NCBI RefSeq assembly: GCF_037042905.1
Contig: NC_087251.1
Span: 9,178,001 to 9,242,000, forward strand
Direction: 5' to 3'
Length of the DNA stretch: 64,000 nucleotides
From: Lytechinus pictus
Lineage: Eukaryota
Made by a program: the position numbers and the translations under genes. This document shows, in pieces, positions 8,827 to 52,299 of this stretch. The notes under the pieces were generated by a model. It searched no databases, had not been told where the DNA came from, and worked only from the letters and a program-made list of their open reading frames with translations. Positions within the stretch are counted from its first letter, which is position 1. Each line of letters begins with the position of its first letter.

Positions 8827-11800
8827 ATGAATGAATGAATGAATGAATGAACTTTATTGATCCTCCTTGAAAAAGTAACATATAACAAGATACATGTACA
8901 ATTATATGCTAATGCATATGTTGAAAACGTTTAAAAGCAACGAATATCGATAATCAAAGGAAAGTAATATAAAGACAAGGAAGACGAGGAGACCTTTGGA
9001 AGCCAGGCTTGTTATACGGTCCCTCAGTATTGAAACAATACGTTATTTGTTTGTTTAAAGCAAAACTTGATTCTAGCTAAACTGGTTGATAATACTAAAA
9101 AAGAAAGAAATCGGTTGTACTAAGGTTATACAAGGATACATATGTGGTTAAAAACTATTTACAGAAGAATAATGGATATGTTGAAGGAAAAAAAAGTAGG
9201 TATAAATAAAATAGATAGATAGACAAATAGATAGATAGAATAACGGGGGGAGCACGAAGTTACAAGATAGAAAATGGCAAGAGATAAGAGATTTGTAACA
9301 AAAACTATAATTGAAATAACTACTTGTACCTAATGACAGGAGTACATGTACATGTACCAGTTGGTCATCGAGACATTTTACATATTAATTTATATTGCTA
9401 ATCACATAGTTCTGCATGTATTTAAAATAAAAACAATTATACATCATAAATGTACTTATTCAAAAATGAATGTTTCAATTTCCTTTTAAAAACAAAAATA
9501 CTAACAGACCCGGTAATGTTGGAGTTCAAAGAATTCCATAACTTTGGCTTTGTACAGATCAGTGTTTTCTGAGCAAATATTGTCCTTGCATGAGGAATAC
9601 GCAGTGCAGTAGCATTTCTTGTTGGGTAATTATGAAATTGGTTGTTCCTATGAAATAAATATGCATGCTAACGTCAATGGCAAATTACCTCTATGAAAAT
9701 TATACATGAGCGACCCCAATTGCAGAAGATAAACATCTTCCAACTTCAAAACATGATGTTCATAAAACAAAGGAGAAGTGTGAGCTAGAAAGTCAGCATT
9801 ACTAACCGCTCGTATAGCTCTCTTTTGGACCAGAAATAATTTATTCAGCTGTGTCTTAAGAGAGTTACCCCATGCAAGGATCCCATAATTTATGTAAGGA
9901 AGAATCAAAGTTGAATATAGAATTTTCAGAATATGTGTTGGGAGATACAATTTAAGCCTGTTTAGAACACCTACATTCTTTGACAACAGCTTACATAATA
10001 TGTTGATATGAGTTTTCCAATTTAGATTCTCATCAATATGAAGACCCAGAAATTTAGTTGTAACCACTCTGTCAATTAAAACACCATCGAAAGAGATATC
10101 ACCAGGCAGAGTTTTGATTGTTTTGCTAAATAACATGTATAGTCTTCTTGAGATTGAGGGACAATTTGTTTGCATGAATCCAGGTTGTTATTTTTTGCAA
10201 CTCAATATTGACGGTATTCAGGAGATATTGAGGATCTTTATGGGAAAAAATATATTGGAATCATCTGCAAAAAGTAAAAAAGATAACAGTTTAGATGAAT
10301 ACTGGAAGTCATTAATGTACAATATAAACAAGAGGGGTCCTAAAAGTGATCCCTGTGGGACACCACATGTTACACTAGTAATTCCGAATCCACACCATTT
10401 AAAGAAACAAAAGTGTTTCCTCTCTGCCAAATAACTTCTGAACCAGTGAAGGGCTGTGCCTCTCATTCCATAATATTCCAGTTTACTCAACAGAATATTA
10501 TGATCTACAGTATCAAATGTCTTAGAGTAGTCCAGAAGAATTCCAATCGTGTGGGTGTGGTTATAAAGGGCATTTGCAATTTTATTAAAGTTGAATTAAG
10601 AAGGGGGTGAGTTTCCATAACAATGAATATAGGTTCTACATACAATATATAGTATATATAAGATGTTCAAACACATAGCATGTCACAATAATCCTCTGCC
10701 TTCTCGATATTTTGCTTTGAAAGTCTATGAAATTAGCCACCTGTCAGAGCCCGAGAGACGAGTGTACAGAAAAGTCACTCGGAGTGTGACGTCACCGGGG
10801 GGAATTTAGTATAAGAGGTGCCTGAATGTCATACAGAAATGCTATGCAGAGAGAGAAAGATATTTTACAATTTTTTTTCAAAGCAACTCAAATCAAACAA
10901 ATGGGACTGATATGTATACAAATCTTTACTTTCCCTGTATAAAAAACAGTATGAATAACCACCATGAACTCTTCAATCATGATGTAAGATAGCAAACAGT
11001 GAGTTATTGAATGATATTTTCACTATTTCTCATTTATTTTATCACGATGTTCAATCAAGTGAGTAGCTGGAAAGTAATTCCGGCGGCTAGCTCAGCGCGC
11101 GCTGAACGCATAATACTAGTACACACAACACCCAGGCATTGAGTGTACTGTTATGGTCTGGTAAGTCGACTTAGTTCATGGCCGTGCAGCGATCCCCTGG
11201 CGTTTTTTCTTCTTTTCTTTTGTCTTTGACTCCACTTTTATATCCTCTGGATCATTTCCACTCATAGCTCATTCCACAGAACAATCTTGAACCAAACGTA
11301 TAGTATTCTTTCTCGGCCTTCTGAGTTGTTTTCTATATTTAATTACGCTAGGGGTCACCGTCACACATACAAACGCAATTCGGAAGTGAGTTGAAGACAG
11401 AAAGATATATAGTAATTAGTATACATCTCTATGGTTGAAGACAACAAGAACGGTACGGTAGCTCGACAGCTAGCTGCGCCGGAGCGGGCGGCCGGTCGGC
11501 ACAAAGCAATTCCGCAACCAACTGTGTTTTTTTGCAAGAGCCGCGTCACACGCGGATAAATATGTCATAATAACACGTCTGCTACGTTATCGACTGGTGA
11601 GAAGATCTCGATCAAATTTCATATTATTCACCTTGAAATTATTCCTTTAGGGTCTATGGTATCATTCTGAGGGAATTCACATATTTGGAATAATAGTACG
11701 GCCACAAATATTTTAATCATTTCCTCTTTGCAAGTTCTATGGCTCGCAGATACAACTTCAACTGCAGTTATTCCATATGAAGGAGTACGTGCATAGTACA

Positions 11801-13415
11801 CAAAACGGCACTGCCTTGTTTTCTACACCGGGACCGAATACCCCCCGGTGACGTCACACTCAAAGAACACCCGTCTCGGTAGGCATTGCAGGAGCGAACT
11901 CAGGGGAAATGGGGAGGGATAAATCGTTCAAATTCACTATTTTGAAAAAAGAAAATGGGGGGTCGAATCACCTATTAGTGTTTGGGGGGTTGTAAGGTTG
12001 CTATTAATGTAAATATCTCAATATTTGGAATCGTCTTCTTAATTCAACTTTAACAAAATGCAAAACAGCATGGCTTGTTTTTCTCTGAAACCGAATTGGA
12101 ATTGAGAGAACACATTACTCTCATTCAAAAACTTTACATGTCGTACGTATATACTTACTAGCTTTTCTAAAAGCTTAGAAAAGGTTATTAATAGAGAAAT
12201 TGGACGATAATTTGTTAATAATTTTGCATTCCCTTGCACTAATTTAGCAATTTTCATCCTCAAAGGCACAGCCCCATTTAACAAAGACAGGTTAAAGATG
12301 TGAGCAAGAGGTTTCAATATGCCATCAACACTTAACTAAACCATTTCCAATACTATCACACACTTGGATTTTCCTTTTCTTTAAGGCACCTATTAAATCA
12401 AGAAGTTGCTTCTCTTTTATGGGCGAGAGGAAAATACTTTGCTCGTTTGGTGACTTAAGATAATGACGAAATTGTTGTTGAAAGTCTGGTATTTCCCTTG
12501 ACAAATTAAGGCCAATATTACAAAAATAAGTATTAAATTTCTCCACAATAATCTTTCGATCATTGATCAAGTTGCCATCAACCTCCAACTCATTTATAAA
12601 AAGTCTATTTTTCTTATTAATTGATCTCAGTGAAGAATGCGTAATCCATGGCATTTTAGGCAATTTCTTATGACTAGGACAGTCCACAGATCGAAATGGG
12701 ACATTATCATTAAACAATAGCATGAATTTATCAAAAAAAAGTATTAAATGAACTATCTACATCATGATCTGAGAGGACATCATCCCATGTAGTTGCCATT
12801 AAAGCATTCTTAAACTTGGCAATGTTTTCAGGGCTATTTACCCGAGACCGTTTATTTGTAGTATCAATAAATGGACGCCTGAGCAAAGTCATTCTGCAAT
12901 ATACAGGAAAATGATCTGAAAGATCGGAAATGACTATACCAGATTCTGGTAAAGGATGAACATTGCAGAAAATGTTATCGATAAGGGTAGCAGACGTGTT
13001 TGTTATTCTTGTTGGTTTAGTAATCAGTGGAACAAAAGAAGATGAAATAAACATATTCACAATTTCATTAGCCTTATCATCTGAATCACAATTAAGCAAA
13101 TTAATATCAAAATCACCCATTAAAAACACACGTTTGTTGTTCAGTAAATTGTTAGTAATTATTGTCTGTATCTGTTCGGAAAATGACTTCAGATTACTAT
13201 GAGGAGGCCTAAGGCTATCTCCTATAATAACATTTTTCCTGCCTGGAAGTAATAGCTCAACAAATAAAGTTTCTAAACTTTCATTCATAATAGTGATATC
13301 TGGACAAATGTTAAAATCAAATCTGGATGGGACATAGACAGCCAAACCACCACCTCTTTTCTTATCCCTGTTATTAGTAACTAAACTAAAACCAGGAATA
13401 TTATACAGACTTGTG
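8827..13415 (-). mobile_element. CR1/L2 LINE ORF2 pseudogene (APE endonuclease + RT), interrupted
   Basis: Endonuclease motifs GGGLAVYV, MGDFDINL, TLIDNIF and SDHFPV (12731-13525). RT motifs [26 protein letters not shown] and FADD. (TTCA)n tail at 8827-8850. The reading frame joins across the insertion at 10589-12049. Confidence 0.9.
10589..12049. mobile_element. Kolobok-like non-autonomous element inside the LINE
   Basis: Perfect 15-bp TIR AGTTGAATTAAGAAG. TTAA TSD at 10585-10588 and 12050-12053. Internal inverted GTGTGACGTCACCGGGGGG motifs. Confidence 0.85.
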
Positions 13416-14606: not shown

Positions 14607-14739
14607 ACCGCTTTCAAAATTGAGCAAAATTTGTTCCAAAAATCGGGTCGCGAACGATCGAACAGTCAGTCAGTCGTAAGGTGTGCCGAGATGATTCTCA
14701 CACATCGACAGCTAGCTAGCTTTGTGCTTGTCATATTTT

Positions 14740-15130
14740 GTGCATAAAAAATATCGCGCGCGCGCTATTAATCGCACGTGGTATACGATCGGTACAGTAT
14801 ATACGGTATATACGGTATATATGCGCAGAGACAAGCCTCAGGTCAGGAGACTCAATTAGGAAAGAAGTTTCACAGGTGAAAAGTACGAATTTTACATTAT
14901 TGCTATTAATTTAAGGTATCAGAATCATTTCCTTTTATTACCTACAACATTATTAATTATTGGTCACGTTGATTCTTTGTGGATATTACCCTGGTTTTAG
15001 TCGTCAGTCAGCTCGGTTCTCCGTGGCGTGGCGCGGACGTGACGTTGAGTGGGCACGCAAGCCATATCGGTCATCGTTCCCATTGCCGACACAAGCAATT
15101 CTTGTGCACGTATGTTCCATGTTGGAAATC
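14740..15130 (+). promoter_or_regulatory. CpG-rich unique segment; candidate PRPF39 promoter / non-coding exon 1
   Basis: CGCGCGCGCG, CACGTG and TGCGCA motifs, possible donor CAG|GTGAAA at 14876. One of the few non-TE segments upstream of the first coding exon. Confidence 0.3.
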
Positions 15131-15277
15131 ACGATTCTGTGACACAGTAATTCGATTTGTACAGGAGCTAATTTATTTTAGGTACGTACCGTAATGGTAC
15201 TAGTATTCAACCTGTTTGGAGAGTTTCTTCAAATATACAGAAATATGGAATTTACCTGAATTTCAGACCTGTCTTAT

Positions 15278-15959
15278 TAGGGTGTCTGGAGAAAAAAATT
15301 ATTTTTCTTATTTCACGAAAATATCACATTTTCTTTGTGAATTTGAAGAGAAATGACCTTCAGACTGACAGAAATGTAACATTTTTGAAAAAAATCCAAT
15401 TATTGGCTGCAAAAAAGAAGAATGAAATTAGGTAAATTTTCAGCATTTCTCTGCCATAGACTGTGTAGTTAAGAAATGGACACACACAAATCCAAATTTT
15501 TAGCTTCCGAGAGCTGTTATAAATTTATTATTAATGCCAAAAACTTGTCCATAAAGAGTCCAATAGGATTTTTTATGCTCTATCTGATAGTATGATTTTT
15601 ATAAAGATTTGGAAACCAGATCACAATGAAAACTTGCGACAAAGTGAAAAAAATTGTGCAAAACAGAAATTTCATTTTCCCATAGAAAACGCATGGAGAA
15701 ATGGCAATCTCAACACACACAAAAATAAGGGTTTGCAATTTATCTCTAAATCCTTATTTAAAATGATCCTATAAACTTGTCCTTACTGTCAAAAGAAGCC
15801 CCTGAATGTTCTCTTTCCATACATGTCAAACACAAGTTAATAATCAATTCAGATCACATTTTTCTAGTAGCCTGAACTTCCCCGAAAAAATGTGCCATAT
15901 TTTTCCCTAAATCAGCCTGTTTTATGCTGACACTTTTCAGTGTGGCTTCAGACACCCTA
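15278..15959. mobile_element. Nested MITE (TAGGG termini, hAT/P-like)
   Basis: TIR TAGGGTGTCTG. Direct repeat GTCTTAT at 15271-77 and 15960-66. Confidence 0.75.
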
Positions 15960-16437
15960 GTCTTATTTCAAAGAGCAAATGCTGGTTATTCTTTTCCCGT
16001 TATTTTTTTCTTCAACCCGTCAACTGCGTGCGCGGGCGATCGAATTTTACGGCGACGGTTTTTGGTACTAGTATTCAATCCGTCGGTACTAGTATTCAAC
16101 CTAGTGATGAAAGATGGTCCTGTCTCTCAATCTGCCCTTGTCCCATCCGACTATGGACTAGACCATTTGAGATGAGACCAAAAAAGTGGCAAACAGGGAA
16201 TTAATCAAAGCCAGAGACTTACATAGATCTAGATCTAATTTAGCAATCTAGACCTTTTTAAGATTTGCTATCAATCCTCACTAGGTTGAATACTAGTACC
16301 ATTCAGTGCAAAAGGCCATCGCCGCATAATTCGATCCTCTGCGCACACAGTCGACAGATTGATAAAGAAAATACTGACAACAGATTACCCTGGAAATAAC
16401 AAAGGTATGAAATTAAGATAAATTCCCTATTTCTAGA

Positions 16438-19400
16438 TAATGTTGTAAATCGGATCAAAAATCAGATCGAAAATCGGATCGGCAGTTAAGCTTCTAAAAT
16501 CGAAATCGAATCGAAAATCGAATCGGCGATGTTTAAAAACAAAGGAATACATCAAAATGTTGTTCGCGGTCGTGCGCATCTTCCTTACAAAGTCACAAAG
16601 ACGAATGCATTGGAATGGAAGTCGCCAACATGCGCGATCGTTTGGAACATGTTTTAAAGCCAGGGGTTTTGAGGTGTTATTGCTTTAAAATAAACCGAGT
16701 GATTTTTATTAGAATGATAAACGAAAGACGCATCTTCCGAGCAAAGGCGCAAAGGAAAATAAAATGAAAATATTTCTCATAGATCACAGGTTAATGAACG
16801 ATCGGCGGGACATCTTTTAGAAGTATTTTTAGGTGCTAGCGATTTAGAATTATTGGAATGATCTCTTACGACGCATCATCTTAAAGTCGCAAGTGCAATT
16901 AAAATGAAGTAGACGACGCAAGCACGCACGATGATTTGAAATATGTTATTAAAATGTTTTGGGTAGCTAGCGTTTTCAAATCAATTTGAAGTTCACGGCG
17001 GGGTCCGCTATCACCACGAGGTTGAAGAGAAGATGTCTATCATCATAAAGGGGGTAAGAGAGTAGCGCAGTGAGCTCCGTCGGTAATACGACCTTTCAAA
17101 GTTCACGGCGGCTTCCGCCATCACCACGAGGTTGAAAATAAAATGAATATCATCATAAACGATGTAAGAGAGTAACGCAATAAGCTCCGTCAGTAGCACG
17201 ATCTTTAAAAGTTCACGGCGGGGTCCGCTATCACCACGAGGTTGAAAATAAAATGTAAATCATCATAAACGATGTAAGAGAGTAACGCAATGAGCTCCGT
17301 CAATAGTACGACCTTTCAAAGTTCACGGCGGCATCCGCTATCACCACGAGGTTGAAAATAAAATGTATATCATTATAAACGATGTAAGAGAGTAGCGCAG
17401 TGAGCTCCGTCGGTAATACGACCTTTCAAAGTTCACGGCGGCTTCCGCTATCACCACGAGGTTGAAAATAAAATGAATATCATCATAAATGATGTAAGAG
17501 AGTAACGCAATAAGCTCCGTCAATAGTACAGTCTTTAAAAGTTTCTGGCGGGGTCCGCTATCACCACGAGGTTGAAGAGAAGATTTATATCATTATAAAC
17601 GATGTAAGAGAGTAGCGCAGTGAGCTCCGTCGGTAATACGACCTTTCAAAGTTCCCGCGGCTTCCGCCATCACCACGAGGTTGAAAATAAAATGAATATC
17701 ATCATAAACGATGTAAGAGAGTAACGCAATAAGCTCCGTCAGTAGCACGATCTTTAAAAGTTCACGGCGGGGTCCGCTATCACCACGAGGTTGAAAATAA
17801 AATGTAAATCATCATAAACGATGTAAGAGAGTAACGCAATGAGCTCCGTCAATAGTACGACCTTTCAAAGTTCACGGCGGCATCCGCTATCACCACGAGG
17901 TTGAAAATAAAATGTATATCATCATAAACGATGTAAGAGAGTAACGCAATAAGCTCCGTCAGTAGCACGATCTTTAAAAGTTCACGGCGGGGTCCGCTAT
18001 CACCACGAGGTTGAAAATAAAATGTATATCATCATAAACGATGTAAGAGAGTAACGCAATAAGCTCCGTTAATAGTACAGTCTTTAAAAGTTTCTGGCGG
18101 GGTCCGCTATCACCACGAGGTTGAAGAGAAGATTTATATCATTATAAACGATGTAAGAGAGTAGCGCAGTGAGCTCCGTCGGTAATACGACCTTTCAAAG
18201 TTCACGGCGGCTTCCGCCATCACCACGAGGTTGAAAATAAAATGAATATCATCATAAACGATGTAAGAGAGTAACGCAATAAGCTCCGTCAGTAGCACGA
18301 TCTTTAAAAGTTCACGGCGGGGTCCGCTATCACCACGAGGTTGAAAATAAAATGTAAATCATCATAAACTATGTAAGAGAGTAACGCAATGAGCTCCGTC
18401 AATAGTACGACCTTTCAAAGTTCACGGCGGCATCCGCTATCACCACGAGGTTGAAAATAAAATGTATATCATCATAAACGATGTAAGAGAGTAACGCAAT
18501 GAGCTCCGTCAATAGTACGACCTTTCAAAGTTCACGGCGGCATCCGCTATCACCACGAGGTTGAAAATAAAATGTATATCATCATAAACGATGTAAGAGA
18601 GTAACGCAATAAGCTCCGTCAGTAGCACGATCTTTAAAAGTTCACGGCGGGGTCCGCTATCACCACGAGGTTGAAAATAAAATGTAAATCATCATAAACG
18701 ATGTAAGAGAGTAACGCAATGAGCTCCGTCAATAGTACGACCTTTCAAAGTTCACGGCGGCATCCGCTATCACCACGAGGTTGAAAATAAAATGTATATC
18801 ATCATAAACGATGTAAGAGAGTAACGCAATAAGCTCCGTTAATAGTACAGTCTTTAAAAGTTTCTGGCGGGGTCCGCTATCACCACGAGGTTGAAGAGAA
18901 GATTTATATCATTATAAACGATGTAAGAGAGTAGCGCAGTGAGCTCCGTCGGTAATACGACCTTTCAAAGTTCACGGCGGCTTCCGCCATCACCACGAGG
19001 TTGAAAATAAAATGAATATCATCATAAACGATGTAAGAGAGTAACGCAATAAGCTCCGTCAGTAGCACGATCTTTAAAAGTTCACGGCGGGGTCCGCTAT
19101 CACCACGAGGTTGAAAATAAAATGTAAATCATCATAAACGATGTAAGAGAGTAACGCAATGAGCTCCGTCAATAGTACGACCTTTCAAAGTTCACGGCGG
19201 CATCCGCTATCACCACGAGGTTGAAAATAAAATGTATATCATCATAAACGATGTAAGAGAGTAACGCAATGAGCTCCGTCAATAGTACGACCTTTCAAAG
19301 TTCACGGCGGCATCCGCTATCACCACGAGGTTGAAAATAAAATGTATATCATCATAAACGATGTAAGAGAGTAACGCAATAAGCTCCGTCAGTAGCACGA

Positions 19401-20807
19401 TCTTTAAAAGTTCACGGCGGGGTCCGCTATCACCACGAGGTTGAAAATAAAATGTAAATCATCATAAACGATGTAAGAGAGTAACGCAATGAGCTCCGTC
19501 AATAGTAAGACCTTTCAAAGTTCACGGCGGCATCCGCTTTCACCACGAGGTTGAAAATAAAATGTATATCATCATAAACGATGTAAGAGAGTAACGCAAT
19601 AAGCTCCGTTAATAGTACAGTCTTTAAAAGTTTCTGGCGGGGTCCGCTATCACCACGAGGTTGAAGAGAAGATTTATATCATTATAAACGATGTAAGAGA
19701 GTAGCGCAGTGAGCTCCGTCGGTAATACGACCTTTCAAAGTTCACGGCGGCTTCCGCTATCACCACGAGGTTGAAAATAAAATGAATATCATCATAAATG
19801 ATGTAAGAGAGTAACGCAATTAGCTCCGTCAATAGTACAGTCTTTAAAAGTTTCTGGCGGGGTCCGCTATCACCACGAGGTTGAAGAGAAGATTTATATC
19901 ATTATAAACGATGTAAGAGAGTAGCGCAGTGAGCTCCGTCGGTAATACGACCTTTCAAAGTTCACGGCGGCATCCGCTATCACCACGAGGTTGAAAATAA
20001 AATGTATATCATCATAAACGATGTAAGAGAGTAACGCAATAAGCTCCGTCAATAGTACAGTCTTTAAAAGTTTCTGGCGGGGTCCGCTATCACCACGAGG
20101 TTGAAGAGAAGATTTATATCATTATAAACGATGTAAGAGAGTAGCGCAGTGAGCTCCGTCGGTAATACGACATTTCAAAGTTCACGGCGGCTTCCGCTAT
20201 CACCACGAGGTTGAAAATAAAATGAATATCATCATAAACGATGTAAGAGAGCAACGCAATAAGCTCCGTCAATAGTACAGTCTTTAAAAGTTAATGGCGG
20301 GGTCCGCTATCACCACGAGGTTGAAGAGAAGATTTATATCATTATAAAGGGGGTAAGAGAGTAGCGCAGTGAGCTCCGTCGGTAATACGACCTTTCAAAG
20401 TTCACGGCGGCATCCGCTATCACCACGAGGTTGAAAATAAAATGTATATAATCATAAACGATGTAAGAGAGTAACGCAGCGAGCTCCGTCGGTAATACGA
20501 CCTTTCAAAGTTCACGGCGGCATCCGCTATCACCATGAGTTGGAAGAGAAGATATCTATCCCCTTAAACATTGCCATAGATAATACCGCGACTTTCTCCC
20601 TGAATAATGCGACCTCTAAATAGCTAGCACCTCAAAAACAATCTTGAAATATGTTCTGAGCGATCACGCACTGTAACCAGATCTACGCCGATTTTTTATT
20701 TTCGATTTTTTCCTTCAAGGGGCATGATCGAAGATCGGCAAGTGATTGCCGATTGTGGTGAAATCGAATGGAATCGGTTGCCGATTGCAAAATCGGTTAC
20801 AAGCTTA
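16438..20807. mobile_element. hAT-like element carrying a satellite array
   Basis: 8-bp TSD TTTCTAGA at 16430-37 and 20808-15. Imperfect TIR TAA(T)GYTTGTAA. Clustered AATCG(G/A) subterminal motifs at both ends. Confidence 0.7.
16991..20560. repeat. 110-bp tandem satellite, ~32 units plus a partial unit
   Basis: Unit GTTCACGGCGG..TCCGCTATCACCACGAGGTTGAA... starts at 16991, 17101, 17211 and so on to 20510, with one 109-bp unit at 17651. Confidence 0.97.
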
Positions 20808-20948
20808 TTTCTAGATATTTTGGGGAATATGTCAAAATCTTTGAATTATGCCGGGTTGAATACTAGTACCCATACGGTATGCATGTGAAGTGTCAATGGC
20901 ATAAGACTACATTACGCGTTACGTGACAGTTTGAATCTAGTACCACTC

Positions 20949-22841
20949 TAACCCAGGGAGCTCCCGCCCGCGCAGGGGCTTACCGTGTGTTTGACCATAG
21001 TCACCGGACTAACTATTAGGGTGATTTATGGTCTAATTATTTCTCCAAATGAATTGTGAAAACAGAAAGTATACAATTACCACGATTATATGGATGAAGG
21101 TCTAACGAGTGGCAGTTTCCTGAGATCTGGGCACAGACTGGAACCTCAAAAAAACAAAAAGTTCTCTCCTCTACCCCAGTCTCGATCGGCCATTTTGTTA
21201 CGATTTTTAACAAAAATGGCCGATCGAAACGGGGGTATAAGGAGAGAACTTTTCGTTTTTTTGAGGTTCCAGTCTGTGCTAGCCTGGAGGCGTCTGGGGA
21301 GTGAAAATCATAGTACTAACGTACGCTCACTCCCCACTGACGCCTGGCTTCCTTGAGCATTGGTCTACACACACACTTGATTTTCCCACGGTCAGAGTGG
21401 ACCTAAATTATAACTTAGGCCCTTAGGGTTAGGATTTTTACCCCAAACTACTGTACATGGGCCAAAACTAAGTTTTCCCCCCAAATTTACTATATTTTTA
21501 TTTATATTCCTTCATAGATATTATAAATATGAAAAATAATTAAGAGCACGGAGCGTTGACTTACCAAGTCTGTTTTGGTCGCCATCTTGATCTCTTTGTT
21601 ATCGATACCTAGATACCACACTTGTGTATAGCTGCCAATTTAAATTTAAAAAATACTTGCATCGGCCGATAAATATTTTTGATCGCAAAATACTTGCCTC
21701 GCTTGATAAATATCATGAAGCATGGTGCACAGTGGCAAATTGTATGGAACGGATACCGGTGCGTTCAACGCTAGCGGGCGTGTACATTTTGCTTATTACT
21801 ATTAGTATTAGTATACATGACGTCATCCAGCCACTGCCGAGAGCCAAAATATGAATGAAAATGTAGTAAGCATACGCAGTGCAAGCCTTCCATTGCCCCA
21901 CACAGTATTCCATACACCAAAACAAGTGTGCAATTCTCTAATCTATCACCTCGTACCAAAATCAACTTAGAATTTCACTTTCCTATATTTTGGTCGCCAT
22001 CTTGATCTCTTTGTTATCGATACCTAGATACCACACGTGTGTATAGCTGCCAATTTAAATTTAAAAAATACTTTCATCGGCCGATAAATATTTTTGATCG
22101 CAAAATACCTGCCTCGCTTGATAAATATCATGAAGCAATTTTAAAATATTTATCAACCGAGACAAGTATTTTACGTTCAAAAATATTTATCGGCCGATGC
22201 AAGTATTTTTAAATTTTAATTGGCAGCTATACACACGTGTGGTATCTAGGTATCGATAACAAAGATATCAAGATGGCGACCAAAACAGACTTGGTAAGTC
22301 AACGCTCGTGCTCTTAATTATTTTTCATATTTATAATATCTATGAAGGAATATAAATAAAAATATAGTAAATTTGGGGGGAAAACTTAGTTTTGGCCCAT
22401 GTACAGTAGTTTGGGGTAAAAATCCTAACCCTAAGTTATAATTTAGGTCCACTCTGACTGGGAAAATCAAGTGTGTGTGTAGACCAATGCTCAAGGAAGC
22501 CAGGCGTCAGTGGGTAGTGAGCGTACGTTAGTACTATGATTTTCACTCCCCAGACGCCTCCAGGCTAGTCTGTGCCCAGATCTCAGGAAACTGCCACTCG
22601 TTAGACCTTCATCCACAAAATCGTGGTAATTGTATACTTTCTGTTGTCACAATTCATTTGGAGAAATATTTAGACCATAAATCACCCTAGTCCGGTGACT
22701 ATGGTCAAATACACGGTAAGCTCTCTCCTACCCCAGTCTCGATCGGCCATTTTGTTACAATTCATAACAAAAATGGCCGATCAAATACACGGTAAGCTCC
22801 TGGGCTTCCGCCCGCACAGCGGGCGAGATTTCCCTGGGTTA
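20949..22841. mobile_element. Foldback / Mutator-like palindromic element with 9-bp TSD
   Basis: Ends TAACCCAGGGA...TCCCTGGGTTA. TSD GTACCACTC at 20940-48 and 22842-50. Roughly 700-bp near-identical inverted arms. Confidence 0.88.
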
Positions 22842-23528
22842 GTACCACTCATTCAATGAACAAGGTTATGATATAACCTTGTTCTCAGTTATATCTCCAT
22901 GTGTGGCAAAATAAGGGTGGCAATGTTAGGCTTATTTTCTCTTTTTCTTTGGGACAAATGCTTGATTTTTTTACACTGAAAGTTTCCATTACACCTATTC
23001 ATCATACAACTTGGCTCTTTAAGTAAATTTGATTCTTTAAATTATTTTTTCTTAATTAAAAATAGAGATCAAAAAATGAAAATTTTCTTGCCATATTACT
23101 TTCCACCAATAGAGGGCGTACACAAAAATATGCCCAAAAATCAAGGTTTTGAGCGCTCTGGTGAATACAAAAATTATTCCCAAGTTACTAAGGCCAAGTA
23201 AAAAAAGATAGTAGTTGATCGTCCGGGTTTTCCGAGAGCAATGATGAGGGAGGGCCTTACTATTTGCTATCTTGCTATTTTTTTTTAAAAACAAGGAGGC
23301 ATTTTCTCGGCCCGTTTTTTGACATCAGTGATGAGGGAGGTCCTTACTATTTACTATTTTTTTTGCTATTTTTTATTCAAATGATTGTCAGGCCATGTCA
23401 AGCTCGAATCTTGTAATTTTTTTTCGCTATTCAGCAGCCATAAAAATAGTAAATATCAAGAAAATTGATGCTGCAATCAAAAAGGAAAGCAGGCACGGAG
23501 GAGAAACATCACTTTTTTTTTTTTTTAA

Positions 23529-26500
23529 AGTATACATCCAAAGAAAATTCACGAAAGTGATGATTATAGACAAATTATATATGAATGGAAAGGTCTTGTA
23601 TTTTTATACACAAATATGTCACTAAAAAGTCTTATTGATGTCGTGGAAATGCAAGAAATGAAATTATTAGAGACCCTTCTCAGCCCCCCCAGCCGCCCCC
23701 AGACAGACAATAACGCGATCAAATACAGTCGAGAATAATGACGTCACATGATGATCGACTCACTCAGCCGCTCTCTAGCTCTGTGCAAGCCAGCAGTACA
23801 CTGATAGCTGATTCACCTTCCTGGTCTCTATTTTTCTTCGAATTTACCGTTTTCTTCATGTATTGTGATATCCGAATTCTGTTTTCGACAACTTCAGACT
23901 ATAAGGGAACCAGAACTGTGTTATTTTGCCCGGTTTTTATTGAATTGTGAACTGGAAAGATCGATTTTGTCCACTCGACAGTCTTCGTTGTGTTGCTCTA
24001 CTAACTATTGAAAAACTCCAAGCTGCACGGTCCCATTCACTTGCTCCCGATGCATGTTGCAGGTTACGCTGTTTGATCCAGTCAAAAGTCAAGGTAAGCA
24101 TGTTTGGAAACTCTACTTGTTCTGACGATGCATTCAGGTCAGATGACAGATACAGATCTGATATAAGTTTAGAATCATGCATTTTGGCGTATACTATTAA
24201 AATTAAAAAGTCTTTATTTTATAAATAATGTTTTTGCACAATTCCAGCAGATTTTTTCTTCAGATTTCTAAAACTGGTCAGGACTCAGGCAGGCGATTAA
24301 ATTATTTAGGAGCACTGGTATGGACCATGGCTGAAAATCTGCTGTTTCAGAGGAATGTTTAAGTTTTTATTATACACAGAATTATATCACCATGATGCCG
24401 ATGTCATGAAGCCAGACAAATTTTCAGCAGTGATTACCCTGATTCCTGGCCAAAATCACTCACACGTATTGCGAGGTTAGTATTAGTATACTAACCTCGC
24501 ACCACGAACCGCGTTTGGCAGTGGATTTCTAACTAGTGGGTCGCGCGTGCTGGGATCTCACTTCTTGGGTCCACAACACACGACTTCTATGGCTTGAATT
24601 TTCTGTGCGCGGCGGCATGTAATGAACCCTTGGGTGGGCCAAAATTAGAGTCTGGTGTTTCTTTCTGATTAGAGTGTTGCTGCATATATGCATGCGTAAT
24701 GCCTTCAACAATGAAGATAAATGCAATCTTTGTAATGAAACAGAGACTCAGAGAGCACCGTACCTCAAGTGATGTTCGTGTAGTCTCCACTTCACTACTG
24801 CTACAGCCTACACTACGCTACACACCTACCCGGGTAGGTGTGGCGTACATGTACGGTAGTGTAGCGGTAGTGAAGTGGAGTGGGGCCTACACAAACATCA
24901 CTTGAGGTAGAGCACCAGTGTTCTGAGTGGAACTTTTCAGGTGTCTTAACCTACTATCATTTGTTGTTGACCGGGAATTACATGCCACCGCACGTCATCA
25001 ATCATCACGATAATTAAATTCATACTTTGATTTGATTATTTAAACTATTTCTTTTTTTCTCTCTTCTACACACAGATCTGCACACTTGCTGACTCTGGTG
25101 ACTTCTGGTCTCTGCTTGCTACCTCAATCTGGGAGATTCCATCATGTCCTTTTACTATGATTTGGATATAGCCATTTTTTTCTTCACTCTTTCCAGGACC
25201 TACGGTTTGCAAGTTGTCGACTGATAATGATACAAAAGAAAAATTTTCTTTATCAATCTTGGAAACAATTTTGAGCACAGTTTTGGAGAGAACTAAGAAA
25301 TTTGACTTGGACAGAAATACAGCTTGTCAAAAATAATAACACACAATTTAAAACGAAAGAACAATTTTAATGTTACTAGGGCATTTTGCGAGAAATGTAA
25401 TACTCAATCACACGTCCCAAATCAAGGGTAAGTCCTTTGATTAAACATGTAGTTGAATTGCGATTGCAACTCGACCTTATTACGCTTGAATTTGAATTTA
25501 AGACTTACGCTTGATTTGCAATTGAACATAAGTTTCTTGCAGTGCCCCATAATTATGTTTTGTTATCAGATATTTAACGTGCTGATTTTTCTCGAAAGGT
25601 ATAATATATTTGTCCTTTTAAACGGTATTTGAATATGGGTACGCCTTTTATTTGTTTTCCACAATATTTATTGCATGTATGAACAGAAGTGAAATATTTA
25701 TTGTGAAGCACTGTGAATGTTGTGTGCTGTTGTGTGATGTTCATCATTTTTGTTATAAGACTGAAAGCCTGGTGGATGTGAGGAAGTGGCCTGGATGAAA
25801 GAAAAGTGAACATGTGTCCAATTACTGATTTGCATATTCTAAGACAATTTTGTTTCTGGATAAATTTTGCTATGCATTCCCTACATTAAGAGTAAAGGAG
25901 AAGTCCACGCAATCAAAAATTCATTTGAATTTAAAGAAAAATAACAAGATATTGCAGGAAATTTCATTAAAACTTTGATTCAAATTTATATAATTACTAT
26001 TTTAACAGTTCCGTAAATATAACCTATTGTGATCAGATGAAGAGTTTCCTATCGTCAAATCTGCAAAGAATAAAAAACAAAATGCCACAAAAATAGAAAC
26101 GAATGTGATGTGAGTGACAACTCTAATTTGCATATCATTGTTTTGTGTATATGACTGTTTTGAGTAAAAACAACAAGGGAAATTACTCTATTCAAATAAT
26201 TTTTAGTTGATGTGGACTTGACTTTTAACTCTACCCCTCCCATCCCAAATAAGAGTAGAAATAATCTAATCAAGAACTTGAAAATCAAAAGCAGCAATTA
26301 ATAAGCAAGATTTGATAAATACAGGTCTGAATAGAATTTCACAAGAAAATAAAAAGAGAAAAAAAGATGGGTAGGGACGGGGAAGGAATATAAAAAAAAT
26401 GCCCAGAAAAAAAATCCGAGTTTCGAACCAGGGTCCTCGCACATGACAAAACAATGGCCAACGCATTTGGCCACAGACCATTGCCCTACCGGAAAGGCAT

Positions 26501-27139
26501 TTTTAAAATATATGTAATGCTTCGGCAATTCAACTGCAATTTCAGTCATTTCGCGATGGATATTGCCGTGTTTTTTTTGTGGTTCCTGACTTTGCTACTT
26601 AATGAAATTTCATAATTTTTGTTCAGTCATAAAGAAGAATGTCTATGCTTTATATTGATTATAATATTAATGTGACGCAAGTGTGATTTCTACGTGAAAA
26701 TATGCTTTGTTTATTCACATATATTTCTTGAAAAAAAAAAATTCTAAGCTAAATATCGGTTACCAAAATACGTTAAATGTGCACTTTTTTTCACTGTTCA
26801 GTAAATTCAAACTTTTATCTATATAACAAGACCAATATTAAGAGCAATAAACAATTCTAAGAGCAAAAAACGCTGATTGGAAAGATTGTCTCCAATGGGC
26901 TGCTGTCAGCTCAGCTGCTCACTGCTCATTGTGTGACGTCACTCAGCTGGAGCTCGCAAGAGGACCGGTGGAAGGCAGAAATATGGCATGAAAATAAATC
27001 ATTTTTGAGAGCTGATTTCTGCAAACTCTGATCACTATTTTGAAAAGTGAAGTTATATATCTGATTAGTATACTTCCCCTTTACAATGATGACCACATAA
27101 AGTCATTATAAAATACTTTTGATTCTTTGGATGTATACT
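23529..27139. mobile_element. Kolobok-like 3.6-kb non-autonomous element
   Basis: 17-bp TIR AGTATACATCCAAAGAA. TTAA TSD at 23525-28 and 27140-43. Confidence 0.8.
24761..24909. mobile_element. Small palindromic MITE
   Basis: TIR TACCTCAAGTGATGTT, loopless central palindrome CACCTACCCGGGTAGGTG, flanking GAGCACC duplication. Confidence 0.7.
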
Positions 27140-27492
27140 TTAAGCCAATTTTTGAAAATAGTAAATAGTAAAAATTTTCATGCGGCGGCCAAAATAGATG
27201 CGCGCGAGGACGATCAACTATCTTTTTTTACTTGGCCTAATGAAAAATAAATTGCAACTGTATGGAAATTAGTAATATTGGTCACAAAAGTGATATTTTA
27301 ATGATTTTTTAAAGTGTGTGCTCTGTACAACATTGGCATACCATACTCCATAGTCCTACCTGCTGTAGATTCCCCACAGGCAGGATGGTTGCAGTGAACA
27401 AGTGTCTAGTACATGTATATATTACATGTACATCAATCAATATTGGGTATGATTATCATTTGGCCCTACTTTTTAGGATAACAGATACAGAG

Positions 27493-27658
27493 ATGGCAAG
27501 GGGAAGAAGAGGCAGAGGCCGTGGTGGGAAAGCCAAAGTTGATGAGAATGTGGGTGTGGCTGATGAAGCTGGCAATGCAGAACAAGAACAGGTTGAAGAC
27601 ATTGTCATTGACGAGTTCGAAGTTGACGAAAATGGTGAAGATGATGATGGTAAAATCG
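27493..27658 (+). CDS. PRPF39: PRPF39 coding exon 1 (RG-rich then acidic N-terminus)
   Basis: Acceptor AG at 27475-76, ATG at 27493 (MARGRRGRGRGGK...), donor G|GTATGT. An in-frame alternative donor follows 27649. Phase 1 fits the next exon. Confidence 0.75.
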
Positions 27659-27718
27659 GTATGTATAGAACATGTGGAATTCTTTAACTACATGCCCATA
27701 ATTTTTATTAGTGTGGTG

Positions 27719-28383
27719 CACAGTGGCAAATTGTATGGAACGGATAGCGGTGCGTTCAACGCTAGCGGGCGTGTACATTTTGCTTATTAGTATACATGAC
27801 GTCATCCAGCCACTGCCGAGAGCCAATTTATGAATGAAAATGTAGTAAGCATACGCAGTGCAAGCCTTCCATTGCCCCACACAGTATTCCATGCACCAAA
27901 ACAAGTGTGCAATTCTCTAATCTATCACCTCGTACCAAAATCGACCTAGAATTTCACTTTCCTATATTTTGTATGAATTATGAAAGGTATTTTCGGAGGA
28001 TCTATTTTCTCACCGATACCGCACAGGTAAGCGAATTGGCATCGTGTTCGTTGGAGTTTGTAGAGTCTATCGCAACGTGTACAAAGTCAATTGATTTTCG
28101 GGTTTTGGAGCGTCGCGTGAATATGCATGAAATTGCCGAGTCTCGATAATTTTCGATTGATACTGGAGCTGGAGCGATCCGATCACGAACCAAGACCATT
28201 TCCCCGCGTAGACAATGTGACCGGTTATCGCTATCGATACTTTCGCACGCAGTTCGAAGGAATTATTTTGGCGACCACGTAGTCATGACGTGATCTGCCC
28301 GATTGGCCAATCAGCGGTCTCCGATTCGCTGAGCCGAGACGGTCTATCCGTTGTACACAGTCTATGGACAATTTGCCACTGTG
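27719..28383. mobile_element. Non-autonomous Transib/RAG-like element with RSS-like ends
   Basis: 16-bp TIR CACAGTGGCAAATTGT. 5-bp TSD TGGTG at 27714-18 and 28384-88. Motif SAACGGATAG lies 12 bp (left) and 23 bp (right) after the heptamer. Confidence 0.85.
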
Positions 28384-28712
28384 TGGTGCTCAATCTTTAA
28401 TCTTTTCTTGCTTTCATCCTGTAAGCTGATTGTAATTGATTTTAGCATAATCTATTGCTCTTGCTGTCTTGCATGTTTCAATGATTATTAAAAGTAGGAT
28501 TTATTACGACATGTATATAAATGTAAATGATATAAATAAATGTATATAAATATTAATTTGAATTTATTGAAATTAAATAAGTATTTCATACTTAAATGTA
28601 TTTAAATGTAATTCTCATTGAAACATAACAGAATGCAATGTGACTTCAGATGAGCTGTTGATTGATAATCAGTAATGTTACGCCCTTTTAACATGTATCC
28701 TGTTTACTGCAG

Positions 28713-31808: not shown

Positions 31809-31962
31809 GTAAAGTCCCTATTTTATGTTTTCAATATAATTTGTTGGAAGTAAAGAATAAATGAAATATTCTATTCTAAACCATCCTGTATCTATCTACT
31901 TCCTGTATATGGATAATGTTTGTTAGTTTTTTACAAATTAATTTTTAGAAAGCAGATCTTAA

Positions 31963-32724
31963 CCCTAAAAAGACTGGGGGGGGGGGCTGATTCAGCCCCC
32001 CTCGACATTTTTCGCGATAAATCTGTAACGTGAAAAGCTGGCGCCGCGCTGTTCCATGACTTTTTTCTTTCAAATCTTGTGCAACTTTTGAGACCAAATT
32101 TGCGACGCCCGAGTACGTGGTTCCGAAATTACGCAACATTTCGTAAGTGCATGTTGACCCAAAATTGCTCAAAAACGCGAATTTGTGTACAAATCCAATG
32201 CAAATTGTGTTTTTAGCCAAAATTCATAAATGTATCATTATTTTCAATTTTACTGATCAAACTCAATTAATTTCATCTTGTTTATGGTCAGAATAAAGTC
32301 CCGGACAATTTCCATTGAAAAAACAATATGAAACAAGAAGTCGAAAAACATAGAAATACATAAGAAATTTTAAAAACAATAAAATACATAAGAAAAGAAT
32401 TGTGATATTGAATTTTTTTTAAATATACATTTGATCAGAATCCTACAAAGAGTCTCTGAATAAAAAATTAGCAGTTTAGAGGCCTTATTTAGTTAATTAG
32501 AGCAAATCTTTGATTTTACACATAAATTAGCATAATAAATGAATTATGAGATTTTTCGGAAAATTTGATCCTACAGTCTTGGAGATTATGCCATGGGTAA
32601 CGCACGTGCCAATTTTCGTCGCGATCGTGCGGTCGACGGCCGAGATCATAGGGGGGGCTGAATCAGCCCCCCCCCCCCCTTCCCCAGTCTTCATAGGCAT
32701 CAAAATAGCCCAGTCTATTTAGGG
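31963..32724. mobile_element. piggyBac-like MITE
   Basis: TTAA|CCCT...AGGG|TTAA with inverted GGGGCTGAWTCAGCCCC motifs. Related to 52300-53062. Confidence 0.85.
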
Positions 32725-34308
32725 TTAAGGGAACCCCTCTTGCATTGAAAAAATATTTTTAAAAAACCTCTCAGCTTTCTGACATGAAAATGTTGTTATT
32801 CTGGACCTATTTTATTTATTAGTTTTTGTTATTTATTTTATATCCACACAAAGAGAGGATGTTGCATGCATGGTATTGAAAAAAACACTTCATATTGATA
32901 AAGATAAATGTACCAGTGTGTGTCCTTTCAAATGGAAAGTTGTAATAGTAATACCTCGAACTTTGCTCATATTTCATTGATTTATCTGTTTGAATAGTAG
33001 GTATATTAACAATGTGTCTGAAGTTTTTAGTACCTCTTACCAATTGATACAACAACAAAAAACTGCTTTTTTTTCTGTAGTCACATATTCCATCAAGGTT
33101 ATTGAATGATGGAACAATATTAAAAATGTGTGTTTGTCAATGCTTACTGGCCTTGTCTGATAATGCACTACATTATTTTGTTGAACCTTGCTACACCAAT
33201 GTCATCATGGACATTGTGCTTGTGTTACCGACGTGCTGTCACTTTTGTTTCACAGGTCTACAACTGAAAGGAAGGTAGATTTTTTTTTAAACAATTTAAA
33301 CAAAAAAAGGAAAATAAAATAAAAGGACTTTCATTATATCTCAAATGCTGACTTTTTTCCACAAACATTCAGTGTTCATGAAGTATTGATATTGTGTGCG
33401 ATATAATAGCGCGCTCTTCCTGGCAATTGGAATTGTCACCGAGTATATGTGTAATATGGTTTCGTGTTTATGACTTTTCGAAGGTATTTCAAACTTCAAA
33501 GTAGGATTGTTTGAATCCTACTTTAATATAAGAAGGTAAGTGCGGTCACTTTTGTTTTACTCATTAAAATTGCAATGTGTAGACCTATTTATTGCAATTA
33601 ATGGCTTCAGAGATAACAATGTGTTGCTTATATTTGCGTTATTATTTACAAAGTATCAATTTATTTGCAACTCTTTCTCATGGAGATGTTGAATACCATG
33701 AGAACAGATCATTAATGTCTGTTAAAACACTATGTACTAATTTGGTTTGTATTATGAGTCTTGAAAATTGTTTTGTATGAATTGAAAACTCGCATGCATA
33801 AAATGAGCACCGATTGTTTTGTGGAAAAGTTCATTTGAGATTCTGAGTCAAACTTTTGAAGAAAAAAAAGTCTTTGGGCCTAGTAAAATTTAAGAAAGAG
33901 TAAATAAAGAAGAGCTGAGCATCAAAGGATTGGAAAATCACAAGGAACAGGAGAAGTCCTCATCTTGTCAGCTGATCCACTTCTTCACATCAAGAAGGTT
34001 GCCTAATCAGTTTATGAAATTATATTAAATATTCGGTTTTGAGCCCATTATTGATTATTAACTACCGTGAATGTGATATTATTTGTTTTCTTATTGCTAT
34101 TATTATTATAATTGATCTTAAGTGAATTCTTTGTTTGGAACTGGCACTGCAATGTCACAAGTGAGCCTACATATTGATGGCTTGTAGGTGTTGAATTGGA
34201 TGTGTTGTATTTGTTGATATGAATGTGGATGTATGAGGAGGCAGTGCCATTCCTACACATCTTGTACATGTTGTAATACTAGTTCTTTGGAATGTTGTAT
34301 TTGGTTAG

Positions 34309-40666: not shown

Positions 40667-41026
40667 TAGATTATCTTTAATTATTAAGATAATCTATTCC
40701 AAACCCATTGAATACTAAGCAATTCTCTTATCTGCATGTTTAAAGTGACATTGCTAATTACCTCTAGCTTTGAATAAATATCCCTTATCTTCTGCTTTCA
40801 AAGTGCAAGTATGTTTTTATGAAGTCATGTTCTGAAGAAAAAAATATATTGATAGCATACAAAATGAGGCTGTGTCCCTAGTAAGATTTTCATTTTTTGT
40901 GGAGAAAATTTCACCCATTTTAAATTGGTAAGCTTGCTGATTTGCTGCAAATTAATTTTTGTAATCAATTTGGCGTACAGGTTCATAAGAACTGATTGAA
41001 TATCTGAAATTCTTGCCATATTGGTG

Positions 41027-43446
41027 TTTTTGTCTCACCTGCATAGCAGAGTGAGACTATAGGCGCCGCTTTTCCGGCGGCGGCGGCGTCAACACCAAAT
41101 CTTAACCTGAGGTTAAGTTTTTGAAATGACAGCATAACTTAGAAAGTATATGGACCTAGTTCATGAAACTTGGCCATAAGGTTAATCAAGTATTACTGAA
41201 CATCCTGCCTGAGTTTCATGTCACATGACCAAGGTCAAAGGTCATTTAGGGTCAATGAACTTAGACCATGTTGGGGGAATCAACATCAAAATCTTAACCT
41301 AAGGTTAAGTTTTTGAAATGTCATCATAACTTAGAAAATATATGGACCTAGTTCATGAAACTTATACATAAGGTTAATCAAGTATCACTGAACATCCTGC
41401 ATGAGTTTCACATCACATGACCAAGGTCAAAGGTCATTTAGGGTCAATGAACTTTGGCCGAATTGGGGGTATCTGTTGAATTACCATCATAACTTTGAAA
41501 GTTTATGGATCTGATTCATGAAACTTGGACATAATAGTAATCAAGTATTACTGAACATCCTGTGCAAGTTTCAGGTCACATGATCAAGGTCAAAGGTCAT
41601 TTAGGGTCAATGAACTTTGGCCAAATTGGGGTATTTGTTGAATTACAGCCATAAATTTGAAAGTGTGTTGGTCTAGTTCATAAAACTTGGACATAATAGT
41701 AATCAAGTATCACTGAACATCCTGTGCGAGTTTCAGGTCACATGATCAAGGTCAAACAGGCGCGTAGCCAGGGGGGGGCGGTGGGGGCGGTCGCCCCCCA
41801 AAAAAAACGTCCCAAAAAAGAAAAAAAGGAAGGGGAAAAAGAGAGGAGAAAAGGAAAGCAAAGGGAGGAAGGGGAAGAAAGGTAGCTTTGTGGGTTTTTC
41901 TTTTCATTCTTTATTTTTCTCTCAAAAGAATTAGTACCTTAACGAAACTCCTTCACTCTCGCTCTAAATTTATATATATATGAATTTTGCTTCCGCGCTT
42001 TGCGCGGTCAAATGACAATATTGCAGTTCTCCTTTCCCTCACCCTTTCTTTAACCCTGTCTTTCCACCTCGGTTATAGGGCTAGTGCGTTCCTTGCTACT
42101 TAAAGTTAAAATGTATACATTAGGGCATGGAATTAGAGTAAGATTAGGCCGAATTATATGAGGTTGTCTTTTTTTTCTTCAAATTGATCACGCAACATTC
42201 CGCACTTCTGGTCGGGTCGGCTCCGGGCGGGTAAAATCTTTATATCAAATGTTGCCGTCACCCCCATATAGGCAACTTCTCCCGCTTTAGCTTGTTAATA
42301 AACATTCATAATTTTGGGGTAAACAGGTTCCTAATTGAAAAAGAGGAAGGTATAAAATTTGTGTCGTATTAAATAAAAAAGTACAATATTTTTATCAAAT
42401 TCGATGAAACTTCATGTCATTTCCCTGCACATTTCATCTCCTGTCTTGTTTTGCGCCCTCAGTTTGAAATTTTGAAAGACACTTAAGTTTCTTAATTGTT
42501 CAAATGCGAGCGCTTCAGGATGAGTCAAAGAAATTATTATTTTTATAATATAATTTCAATAAATCACAGAAGCTTCAACTTTTTGCGCTCTATTTTCCTT
42601 GTAATGAAGTTCAATAATCTTAGAAAATCAATAGAGCCGATGGGGGTATTGGAGATATCTGCATTTGACGTAACGTCCGCCCTTAGAAATTTCAGAGTTT
42701 CATTGCTCTGCGCGTGGAGGAATGTCTTCCTCCCGGCACCCTTCTTCTTCTCTGTTTTGCGAGTTAAAAATATGCACTGTCGCTAAATTGTTTGTAATCA
42801 AACTTTCCACGGGAATTCAATATACATGATATAACTAACTTGATACCCTTTTCCCGGGACCCTTTTCTTAAAAAACAATTGATAAAACGCTTTAGCTTCC
42901 GCGCTTCGCGCGGGGTAATTGTTATTTTAATTTCCTCCATTTATCCCTTTTAGTGCGTTCGAACATATCACAATCACTTTTGAAATCAATGTTCAAAATC
43001 AGAATATAGTCAACTGAATTAGAGCTGACGACAAGAGAGACGGCTCCTTTTCATTTTAATTTATGAAACACCGAAAGCTCCGCGCTTCGCGCGGGAGGGG
43101 AAAACTCCCCCTCCCTGCACCCACCCCCTAGGGAGCGCGCTTCGCGCGCTCTGTAAGTGTTGGCACGCTTCGCGTGCATTTACCGCCCCCTCCAAAATGA
43201 AATCCTGGCTACGCGGTTGAGGTCAAAGGTCATGTAAGGTCAAAGAACTTTGGCCACGTTGGGGGTATTTGTTGAATTGCCATCATATCTCTATAAGTGT
43301 ATTGGTCTAGTTCATAAAACGTGGAAATAAGAGTAACCAAGTATCACTGAACATCTTGTGCGAGTTATAGTAGTTTTCAAAATCAGCACTGCTGCTATAT
43401 TGAATCGCGTGATGCAGGTGAGACGGCCAGAGGCATTCCACTTGTT
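41027..43446 (+). mobile_element. Helentron-associated (HINE/DINE-1/pearl-like) element, copy 1
   Basis: Subterminal IR GTCTCACCTGCAT/ATGCAGGTGAGAC, a (GGC)n tract, ~160-190-bp core tandem repeats and T-rich flanks. Near-identical to 47405-48523. Confidence 0.75.
41757..43219. mobile_element. hAT-like element nested in HINE copy 1
   Basis: Ends CAGGCGCGTAGCCAGG...CCTGGCTACGCGGTTG. 8-bp TSD AGGTCAAA at 41749-56 and 43220-27. Confidence 0.85.
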
Positions 43447-43473
43447 ATGTTATTAATCTACTTTTGATTGTAG

Positions 43474-46720: not shown

Positions 46721-47404
46721 GTAGGTGCAAGCTTTACGCCCCTCTATTAACACTAGTTTGGGAATGACCAAAAGTAGAAAAGTTATCTTATCAGTTTTTT
46801 TTTTTATATCACTTTATGAAAATTGGTGTGCTTTGTCTGGGACTGAGTCATGAGACTTTTCATAATTATCAGAAAAATGAATTTCATGATATCAGAGTAG
46901 AATTGGATTTTTATTATTTTGCGTCCGATTGCCTGTTTACCCAAACCATGCAATCACTCAGACACACAGAACAGCAGGTGTTCTAGTGATAGGACAGCGC
47001 GAATATTATTTATGCTGATTGCAGTTTTCTTTTCACAACAGGTCAGTAGTAATCAGCACAATGAAATGCAATTTGATCTGAATCATAAACTTACTGAAAA
47101 CAAAGATAATTGTGAAATTGCTTCTTGCTTGCTTATGATAAATCTTAATGGTGAAAATAAAATTGATTGCCATCATCTGATTATCAAGAGTTATGGGTTG
47201 CACGGTTTCATTCAGCAAAGTTTGTGAACAAAATGAGTGAAGCCTGCAAGCAGCTGCCGTGCAAACAGATGTAGGCTAGTTGGTTAGCAGCCACTTGCAG
47301 CCTATCCGGCTGAGGGTCAGCTTTATCCTGGGCATCTAATGTCAACCAAAAACACCCTAATGGAAGAAATGCAAAGAAATCTTTCTTAGCATAAGTGATG
47401 TTTG

Positions 47405-48523: not shown

Positions 48524-48665
48524 AATATTATCAGTCTGCATTAAACTGAACACTTAACTGTCATGATTCTTTTATGTGATTCATCTAGTCAGCTTTGCAC
48601 AAGTTGAATCTATTGTTGCTGAGCTGCAACAAAACTTCTTGCATGGGTATAAATATATTAGACTA

Positions 48666-52207: not shown

Positions 52208-52299
52208 TTTTGTAAAGAACATCACTGACATGCATTTCTCTTTTATTTATATTCATGTATGCATTATTGTAACCAAAATCTGTCTGAAAGGCCCCTTAA

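Follow-up and report, generated by a model that had tools for sequence, protein, structure and literature searches.

The window analysed here, 64,000 nucleotides of the Lytechinus pictus contig NC_087251.1, contains a PRPF39-like gene, with transposon blocks and a foldback element of ~1.9 kb (20949–22841) lying upstream of its first coding exon (Table 1). HAT_PRP39_N was matched above cut-off in two of the five exon pieces of this gene, and the best of 115 homologues was PRP39-like from the sea urchin Diadema setosum. Since this homologue begins like the open reading frame at 27493, the ATG at that position is taken as the native start.

Most of the sequence between the foldback element and the first coding exon belongs to a single block (23191–27238), which contains the splice donors 24094 and 25428 and the acceptor 25076. 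The 3.6-kb element nested in it has a TTAA duplication and AG..CT ends and is of Kolobok type (features as given in PMC9587614). The motif TGACGTCA is found near both ends of this nested element, which holds the two strong donors; these are possibly relics of leader exons of the element itself, or an alternative PRPF39 leader. The intervals 23750–24093 and 25076–25427 were considered as native leader exons of PRPF39 and rejected, both being inside the nested transposon. On the other side of the foldback element, the block at 15187–20879 has an apparent TA duplication and contains 32 copies of a 110-bp satellite. Further upstream, a TIR-bounded element (10573–12064; 31-bp ends, 94%) within a LINE-like reverse-transcriptase remnant also carries TGACGTCA close to each end, and a strong donor lies within it at 11161. 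The introns of PRPF39 carry a pair of related elements, whose tandem units measure 163/192 bp, together with a fragment (41025–41756, 43220–43459 and 47403–48537). A MITE ending in TTAA-CCC, which we take to be of piggyBac type, is present twice, at 31958–32730 and 52295–52940, and its copies are 76% alike.

Table 1. Positions in the window of the foldback element, its parts and the neighbouring features
Feature	Position	Strand	Remarks
CpG-rich stretch, candidate native PRPF39 promoter/first exon	14620..15186	+	possible donors 15110, 15182
TIR-bounded block	15187..20879	.	5.7 kb; 26-bp ends, 92%
Target-site duplication, left copy	20940..20948	+	GTACCACTC
Left arm, long imperfect inverted repeat	20949..21722	.	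starts TAACCC
Internal hairpin	21131..21279	.	149 bp; left arm only
Left promoter/first-exon-like module	21558..21722	-	points outward; E-box mutated, other features (donor, DRE-like motif, YY1-type motif with ATG) intact
TGGTG	21723..21727	+	equals the target duplication of the intron MITE
Copy of left (12-bp-spacer) end of intron MITE	21728..21992	+	final five bases TTTTG shared with arm
Middle promoter/first-exon-like module	21988..22137	-	150-bp re-copy of inner end of left arm; ends before splice donor
17-nt loop of inferred original palindrome	22129..22145	.
Right arm	22146..22841	.	terminates GGGTTA
Right promoter/first-exon-like module	22146..22299	+	E-box 22234, DRE-like 22251, YY1-type 22269, ATG 22273, donor 22294
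Second scar, same insert-between-duplication layout	22705..22799	+	57-nt insert, flanked on each side by a copy of the same 19-bp stretch of arm
Target-site duplication, right copy	22842..22850	+	GTACCACTC
Separate transposon block, MITE with 34-bp inverted ends	23191..27238	.	holds nested 3.6-kb element
First coding exon of PRPF39-like gene	27477..27658	+	ATG 27493
Likely donor region of central insert	27714..28388	+	in PRPF39 intron; includes both copies of TGGTG

Anatomy of the foldback element

The first-pass annotation of this locus had proposed a foldback-type DNA transposon insertion with a 9-bp target-site duplication and long inverted arms. Perfect direct repeats of GTACCACTC were confirmed at both ends of the element; this sequence occurs in the window at just these two sites, and a 9-bp match is expected by chance at ~6e-6 given the local base composition. 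The final base of the left repeat can pair with the initial base of its right counterpart, so that extending each end of the element by one base, and shortening the duplication to 7 bp, gives an equally good fit. The arms were likewise confirmed as ~700–770 bp long and pairing with each other in blocks, and together with the direct repeats they support the proposed insertion. Substitutions between the arms amount to 4/123 in the outer block, 1/283 in the middle block and 7/140 in the inner module, an unevenness (1/283 vs 7/140, p = 0.002) which implies further steps in the history of the foldback.

Tandem repeats do not form an array anywhere in the element (20949–22841), where only a two-unit 37-bp repeat and hairpins were found. 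Rfam gave no match on 20880–22900, and none of the three open reading frames of the element that were compared with Pfam had a match; with four reading frames of the neighbouring block included, none reached the cut-off, the one weak match having an E-value of 0.012. The arms (22489–22800 and its mirror) look as if hairpin units of the form TAG...CTA had been strung together at CTAG, possibly representing Academ-type MITE ends. Three tandem duplications of 7–9 bp (21010–21017, 21416–21425 and 21794–21811) distinguish the left arm and the central insert from their counterparts, and appear to be more minor scars of repair or slippage. The target site (20929–20945) falls within a degenerate copy of a motif with the core TACTAGTACC, also seen at 15196, 16064, 16085, 16285 and 20855, where it forms the inverted ends of the satellite block and of the nested pairs 15193–16303 and 16085–16300; its presence at the foldback target site may reflect chance or target preference.

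Promoter-like modules and the start of PRPF39

Each arm ends inwardly in a module that resembles a promoter followed by a first exon. In the right arm, the E-box, the DRE-like motif TATCGATA, the YY1-type motif AAGATGGCG (~22269–22270) and the donor TTG/GTAAGT were all recovered where the first-pass annotation had placed them. The mirror copy that it described in the left arm has lost the E-box and retains the other three features, namely DRE-like motif, YY1-type motif and donor. Where only two modules had been counted, the element has three: the middle one repeats 21573–21722 with 3 substitutions relative to the left copy, and at the 10 module columns that differ it agrees with the left arm at 7 and goes against it at 1.

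To gauge the clustering of the motifs, which were picked after they had been seen, the right arm was dinucleotide-shuffled 20,000 times. The YY1-type motif and the donor co-occurred in 14/20,000 shuffles, and with the DRE-like motif added in 0/20,000, figures that apply to motifs chosen post hoc. The YY1-type sequence AANATGGCG occurs three times in the element and not at all in the remaining 62 kb of the window. Because the cluster is non-random and AANATGGCG is restricted to the element, an origin of the module from a real gene start, of the host or of a transposon, is favoured. The module is most likely a passenger that corresponds to the beginning of a gene, either one carried by the parent transposon or a host gene other than PRPF39, and it would have been doubled through the foldback geometry and then tripled by repair. 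Promoter-like modules close to genes can thus be transposon passengers.

Scored with an approximate matrix, the right-arm donor reaches 4.4, compared to 1.9–3.3 for three real PRPF39 donors. It is outscored by the best six plus-strand donors in 1–27476, and since four of these six lie inside TIR-bounded blocks, donor modules inside transposons are ordinary in this window. Splicing of the right arm from 22293 to 27477 would, as the earlier annotation had stated, leave its ATG out of frame, in a 28-codon reading frame that overlaps the main ATG. The strong potential for long double-stranded RNA that it had also put forward is borne out by the predicted fold, which has 596 long-range pairs and a longest unbroken helix of 127 bp; if the element is intronic and folds in the pre-mRNA, its likeliest molecular effect would be a long RNA hairpin within the intron.

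A candidate for the native promoter and first exon is the stretch at 14620–15186, which contains 38 CpG, compared to a median of 10 and a maximum of 35 in 61 equal windows of the gene body. Outside the transposon blocks, the interval 15187–27476 comprises only 656 bp with 5 CpG. A native first exon at ~14.6–15.2 kb would make the foldback intronic, and in the simplest model suggested by the sequence, the CpG-rich stretch may hold the first exon, with the foldback inside the PRPF39 leader intron. This stretch could itself be transposon DNA, as the transposons of the window are also CpG-rich, and another candidate upstream donor for the native first exon is located at 1415.

The foldback arms are probably not the main start of PRPF39. 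It is unlikely that the right arm provides a promoter and first exon of this gene, main or alternative, which would yield a uORF-repressed isoform while the left arm fires antisense. What makes the right arm plausible as a first exon is the restriction of AANATGGCG to the element, together with a usable donor that outscores the three real ones; the motif cluster is non-random, and there is a precedent in worm, where a Pack-TIR is reported to give rpb-4 an alternative 5′ UTR (PMC8277862). However, a reading frame opened at the right-arm ATG would run across the conserved start in a different frame, the module sits within a long hairpin, the acceptor at 25076 is inside the nested transposon block, two further transposon blocks in the window hold similar donor modules, and a candidate native first exon lies farther upstream. 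Correspondingly doubtful is the idea that the arms act as a divergent promoter, carried by a transposon, within the leader intron of PRPF39. To be called portable, as in the first-pass annotation, such a promoter would need a second copy, and none turned up in metagenome and viral contigs. We consider it highly improbable that no transposon was involved, with the native promoter and first exon in the right arm and a left arm that arose by inverted duplication in situ. The right arm does face the gene in the order promoter, exon and intron-like sequence, and no other copy of the element was found in metagenome and viral contigs, but these collections do not include animal genomes. Inverted duplication in situ would not leave the element flanked by 9-bp direct repeats, and the first ATG would again be out of frame.

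The central insert and its likely history

The centre of the element, missed in the first-pass annotation, is not a plain spacer. Comparison of the window with itself showed that 21723–21992 is a copy of 27714–27971, with 6 substitutions over 258 aligned bases (2.3% divergence) and one 9-bp duplication. The likely donor is a MITE of 665 bp (27719–28383) with CACAGTG ends and a 5-bp duplication, TGGTG, and a second motif shared by its two ends stands at a spacing of 12 bp at one end and 23 bp at the other, the insert holding the 12-spacer end. A 5-bp duplication, CAC ends and 12/23 spacing are features described for the Transib family (PMC1131882). All three are present in the donor MITE, which can be provisionally assigned to the RAG/Transib type. 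A hAT assignment of this MITE was rejected, as its flanks with symmetric ends form a 5-bp and not an 8-bp duplication.

The first five bases of the insert, TGGTG, belong to the flank of the MITE and not to the MITE itself, and are absent from the corresponding place in the middle and right modules; a 5/5 match is expected by chance at ~0.0006–0.001, assuming no target preference. The left-arm copy of the 17-nt loop is interrupted by the insert after its base 9, at the symmetry axis of the palindrome. Insert and arm have 5 nt of microhomology at the return junction (P = 0.006, from 200,000 random pairings), compared to 0 nt at the entry junction. When the insert and the re-copied repeat are subtracted, a palindrome with a 17-nt loop results. 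Donor and insert are 5.6 kb apart, or 1.5 kb without the intervening transposon block, the distance that would apply had this block arrived later. The divergence between left and middle modules (3/150) does not differ from that between insert and donor (6/258) (Fisher p = 1, with small counts). The two internal clocks of the capture event therefore agree, and their equality suits a single event, though few sites are involved. A 57-nt insert in the second scar is 91% like the inner part of the left-arm hairpin, a source that is less certain than that of the central insert.

What is observed is the duplication and the two arms, together with the junctions and the relatedness of the copies; from these we infer an order of events, the enzymes involved and the intronic position. 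We think it probable that the element is a non-coding foldback whose tip broke and was repaired from a nearby MITE, the modules in its arms being passengers and not the main start of PRPF39. The foldback, with its 17-nt loop, would have been inserted, probably within the PRPF39 leader intron, by a transposase that acted in trans and produced the 9-bp duplication; its mobility and family are presumed. The tip of the near-perfect palindrome would later have broken or stalled a replication fork, palindromes with short spacers being described as fragile (PMC7999016). Repair synthesis would then have jumped to the RAG/Transib-type MITE, copying 270 bp that include the five flank bases, and would have come back through the 5-nt microhomology to the intact left arm, of which 150 bp would have been re-copied. 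One point is left over by plain repair, namely the entry exactly at the outer edge of the TGGTG of the donor, where no microhomology is present.

Other accounts of the insert were weighed against repair from the intron copy. It is quite improbable that the insert came from a far-off copy of the same MITE family with an identical 5-bp flank. Another copy could carry TGGTG because some Transib families are reported to be strongly selective for particular targets (PMC1131882), and the insert has diverged by 2.3% from the intron copy. The 5/5 match of TGGTG, with its chance expectation of ~0.001, speaks against a distant source, as do the equal divergence of the co-duplicated module and the reported bias of fillers towards cis sources (PMC8277862). 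There is a very slim chance that a RAG-like transposase was involved, which either targeted the hairpin tip or left a fresh integration site in the intron that supplied the captured broken end. The start of the insert coincides both with the symmetry axis and with the outer edge of the duplication of the donor, the captured end is the 12-spacer end, and RAG is reported to transpose preferentially at hairpin or cruciform tips in vitro (PMC1618415). However, direct insertion would duplicate host bases, and TGGTG is absent from the loop preserved in the middle copy; just one end of the MITE is present, and the exact start is the only point that ordinary repair leaves over. It would be similarly surprising if the palindrome break and a RAG-like integration had been one coupled event on a natural germ-line hairpin, which would account for a start exactly at both the axis and the duplication edge. 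If true, this would be genomic evidence for targeting of hairpin tips by the invertebrate transposon relatives of RAG. The finding would be weightier if RAG-like elements were enriched at palindrome axes, or if the right arm started PRPF39 transcripts. Chimeric reads are a known source of long palindromes, but a fold-back chimera of assembly or library is scarcely credible here, as structured indels and substitutions distinguish the two arms, the insert departs from its donor at 6 sites and by the 9-bp duplication, and the ends of the element carry a target duplication.

Comparison with known elements

The arms of classical FB elements consist of tandem subrepeats, while the terminal bases are GR..YC in MULE/MuDR elements and YR..YR in Academ elements. 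The foldback described here has no tandem subrepeats in its arms (20949–22841), and its termini, TA..TA, depart from GR..YC; they would fit Academ better than MuDR, a weak pointer drawn from two bases. Its duplication of 9 bp (7 bp also being possible) and its TIRs of ~700–770 bp are as in MULE/Foldback elements, which have duplications of 8–10 bp and long TIRs, and a 9-bp duplication also falls within the 9–10 bp of AcademH. PiggyBac was rejected for the foldback, as its terminal CTAA/TTAG is an inverted and not a direct duplication. In exact-pattern scans, the module had no match in metagenome contigs and the terminus none in metagenome and viral contigs, collections of other than animal genomes. 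Non-autonomous elements are classed in Repbase by their ends and duplication (PMC4455052), and on these features MULE/Foldback and AcademH are the candidate superfamilies, with membership of Mutator judged by target-site duplication and TIR length only.

Single-copy, gap-filled elements known as Pack-TIRs offer a close parallel to the central insert. According to Tan et al. 2021 (PMC8277862), 160/281 (57%) of animal Pack-TIR fillers come from ≤15 kb away, with a median length of 224 bp, and microhomology and internal breakpoints are reported, the former at 190/281 fillers. Here, too, the filler is a few hundred bases long, has its source within 15 kb and an internal breakpoint, and no transposition is needed; the parental copy is nearby (5.6 kb, with its flank), and microhomology (5 nt) is present at one breakpoint. 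In contrast, Pack-TIR fillers as defined in that study are non-transposon sequence (PMC8277862), whereas the present one is a transposon end with five flank bases, starts at the symmetry axis and is accompanied by 150 bp of arm that were re-copied rather than deleted. Since 265 of the 270 insert bases are MITE, the element is a gap-filled Pack-TIR in its workings yet outside the strict definition.

Drosophila FB4 and Ssk-FB4 are described as non-autonomous and prone to rearrangement, with 9–10-bp duplications, arms of ~700 bp and sequence captured by template switching (PMC8277862), in all of which they are like the present element. However, the FB4 arms are described as repetitive, and Ssk-FB4 is multicopy, expressed and coding (PMC8277862). 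In root-knot nematodes, the Tm1 Mutator/Foldback elements likewise have 9-bp duplications and long TIRs of composite build, the two arms being ~93% alike (PMC3169594). They are tied to a MULE transposase (PMC3169594), and none is tied to the present foldback; both FB4 (PMC8277862) and Tm1 (PMC3169594) have been placed with Mutator. AcademH shares the 9–10-bp duplications (PMC10045372, citing Kojima 2020). Its parent elements have a transposase and a helicase, neither of which was seen in the element here.

In long engineered palindromes, Cunningham et al. reportedly found in 2003 that repair of a break at the axis increases central asymmetry. The present case differs in being a natural transposon with an identifiable donor, and stabilisation of its palindrome is only partial, because a 140-bp hairpin with a 17-nt loop persists. 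Local capture by gap filling is a known process, of which this element is an instructive and well-preserved example: it makes the gain of neighbouring DNA by a foldback unusually legible, down to single bases, with donor, breakpoint, microhomology and re-copied arm in one window.
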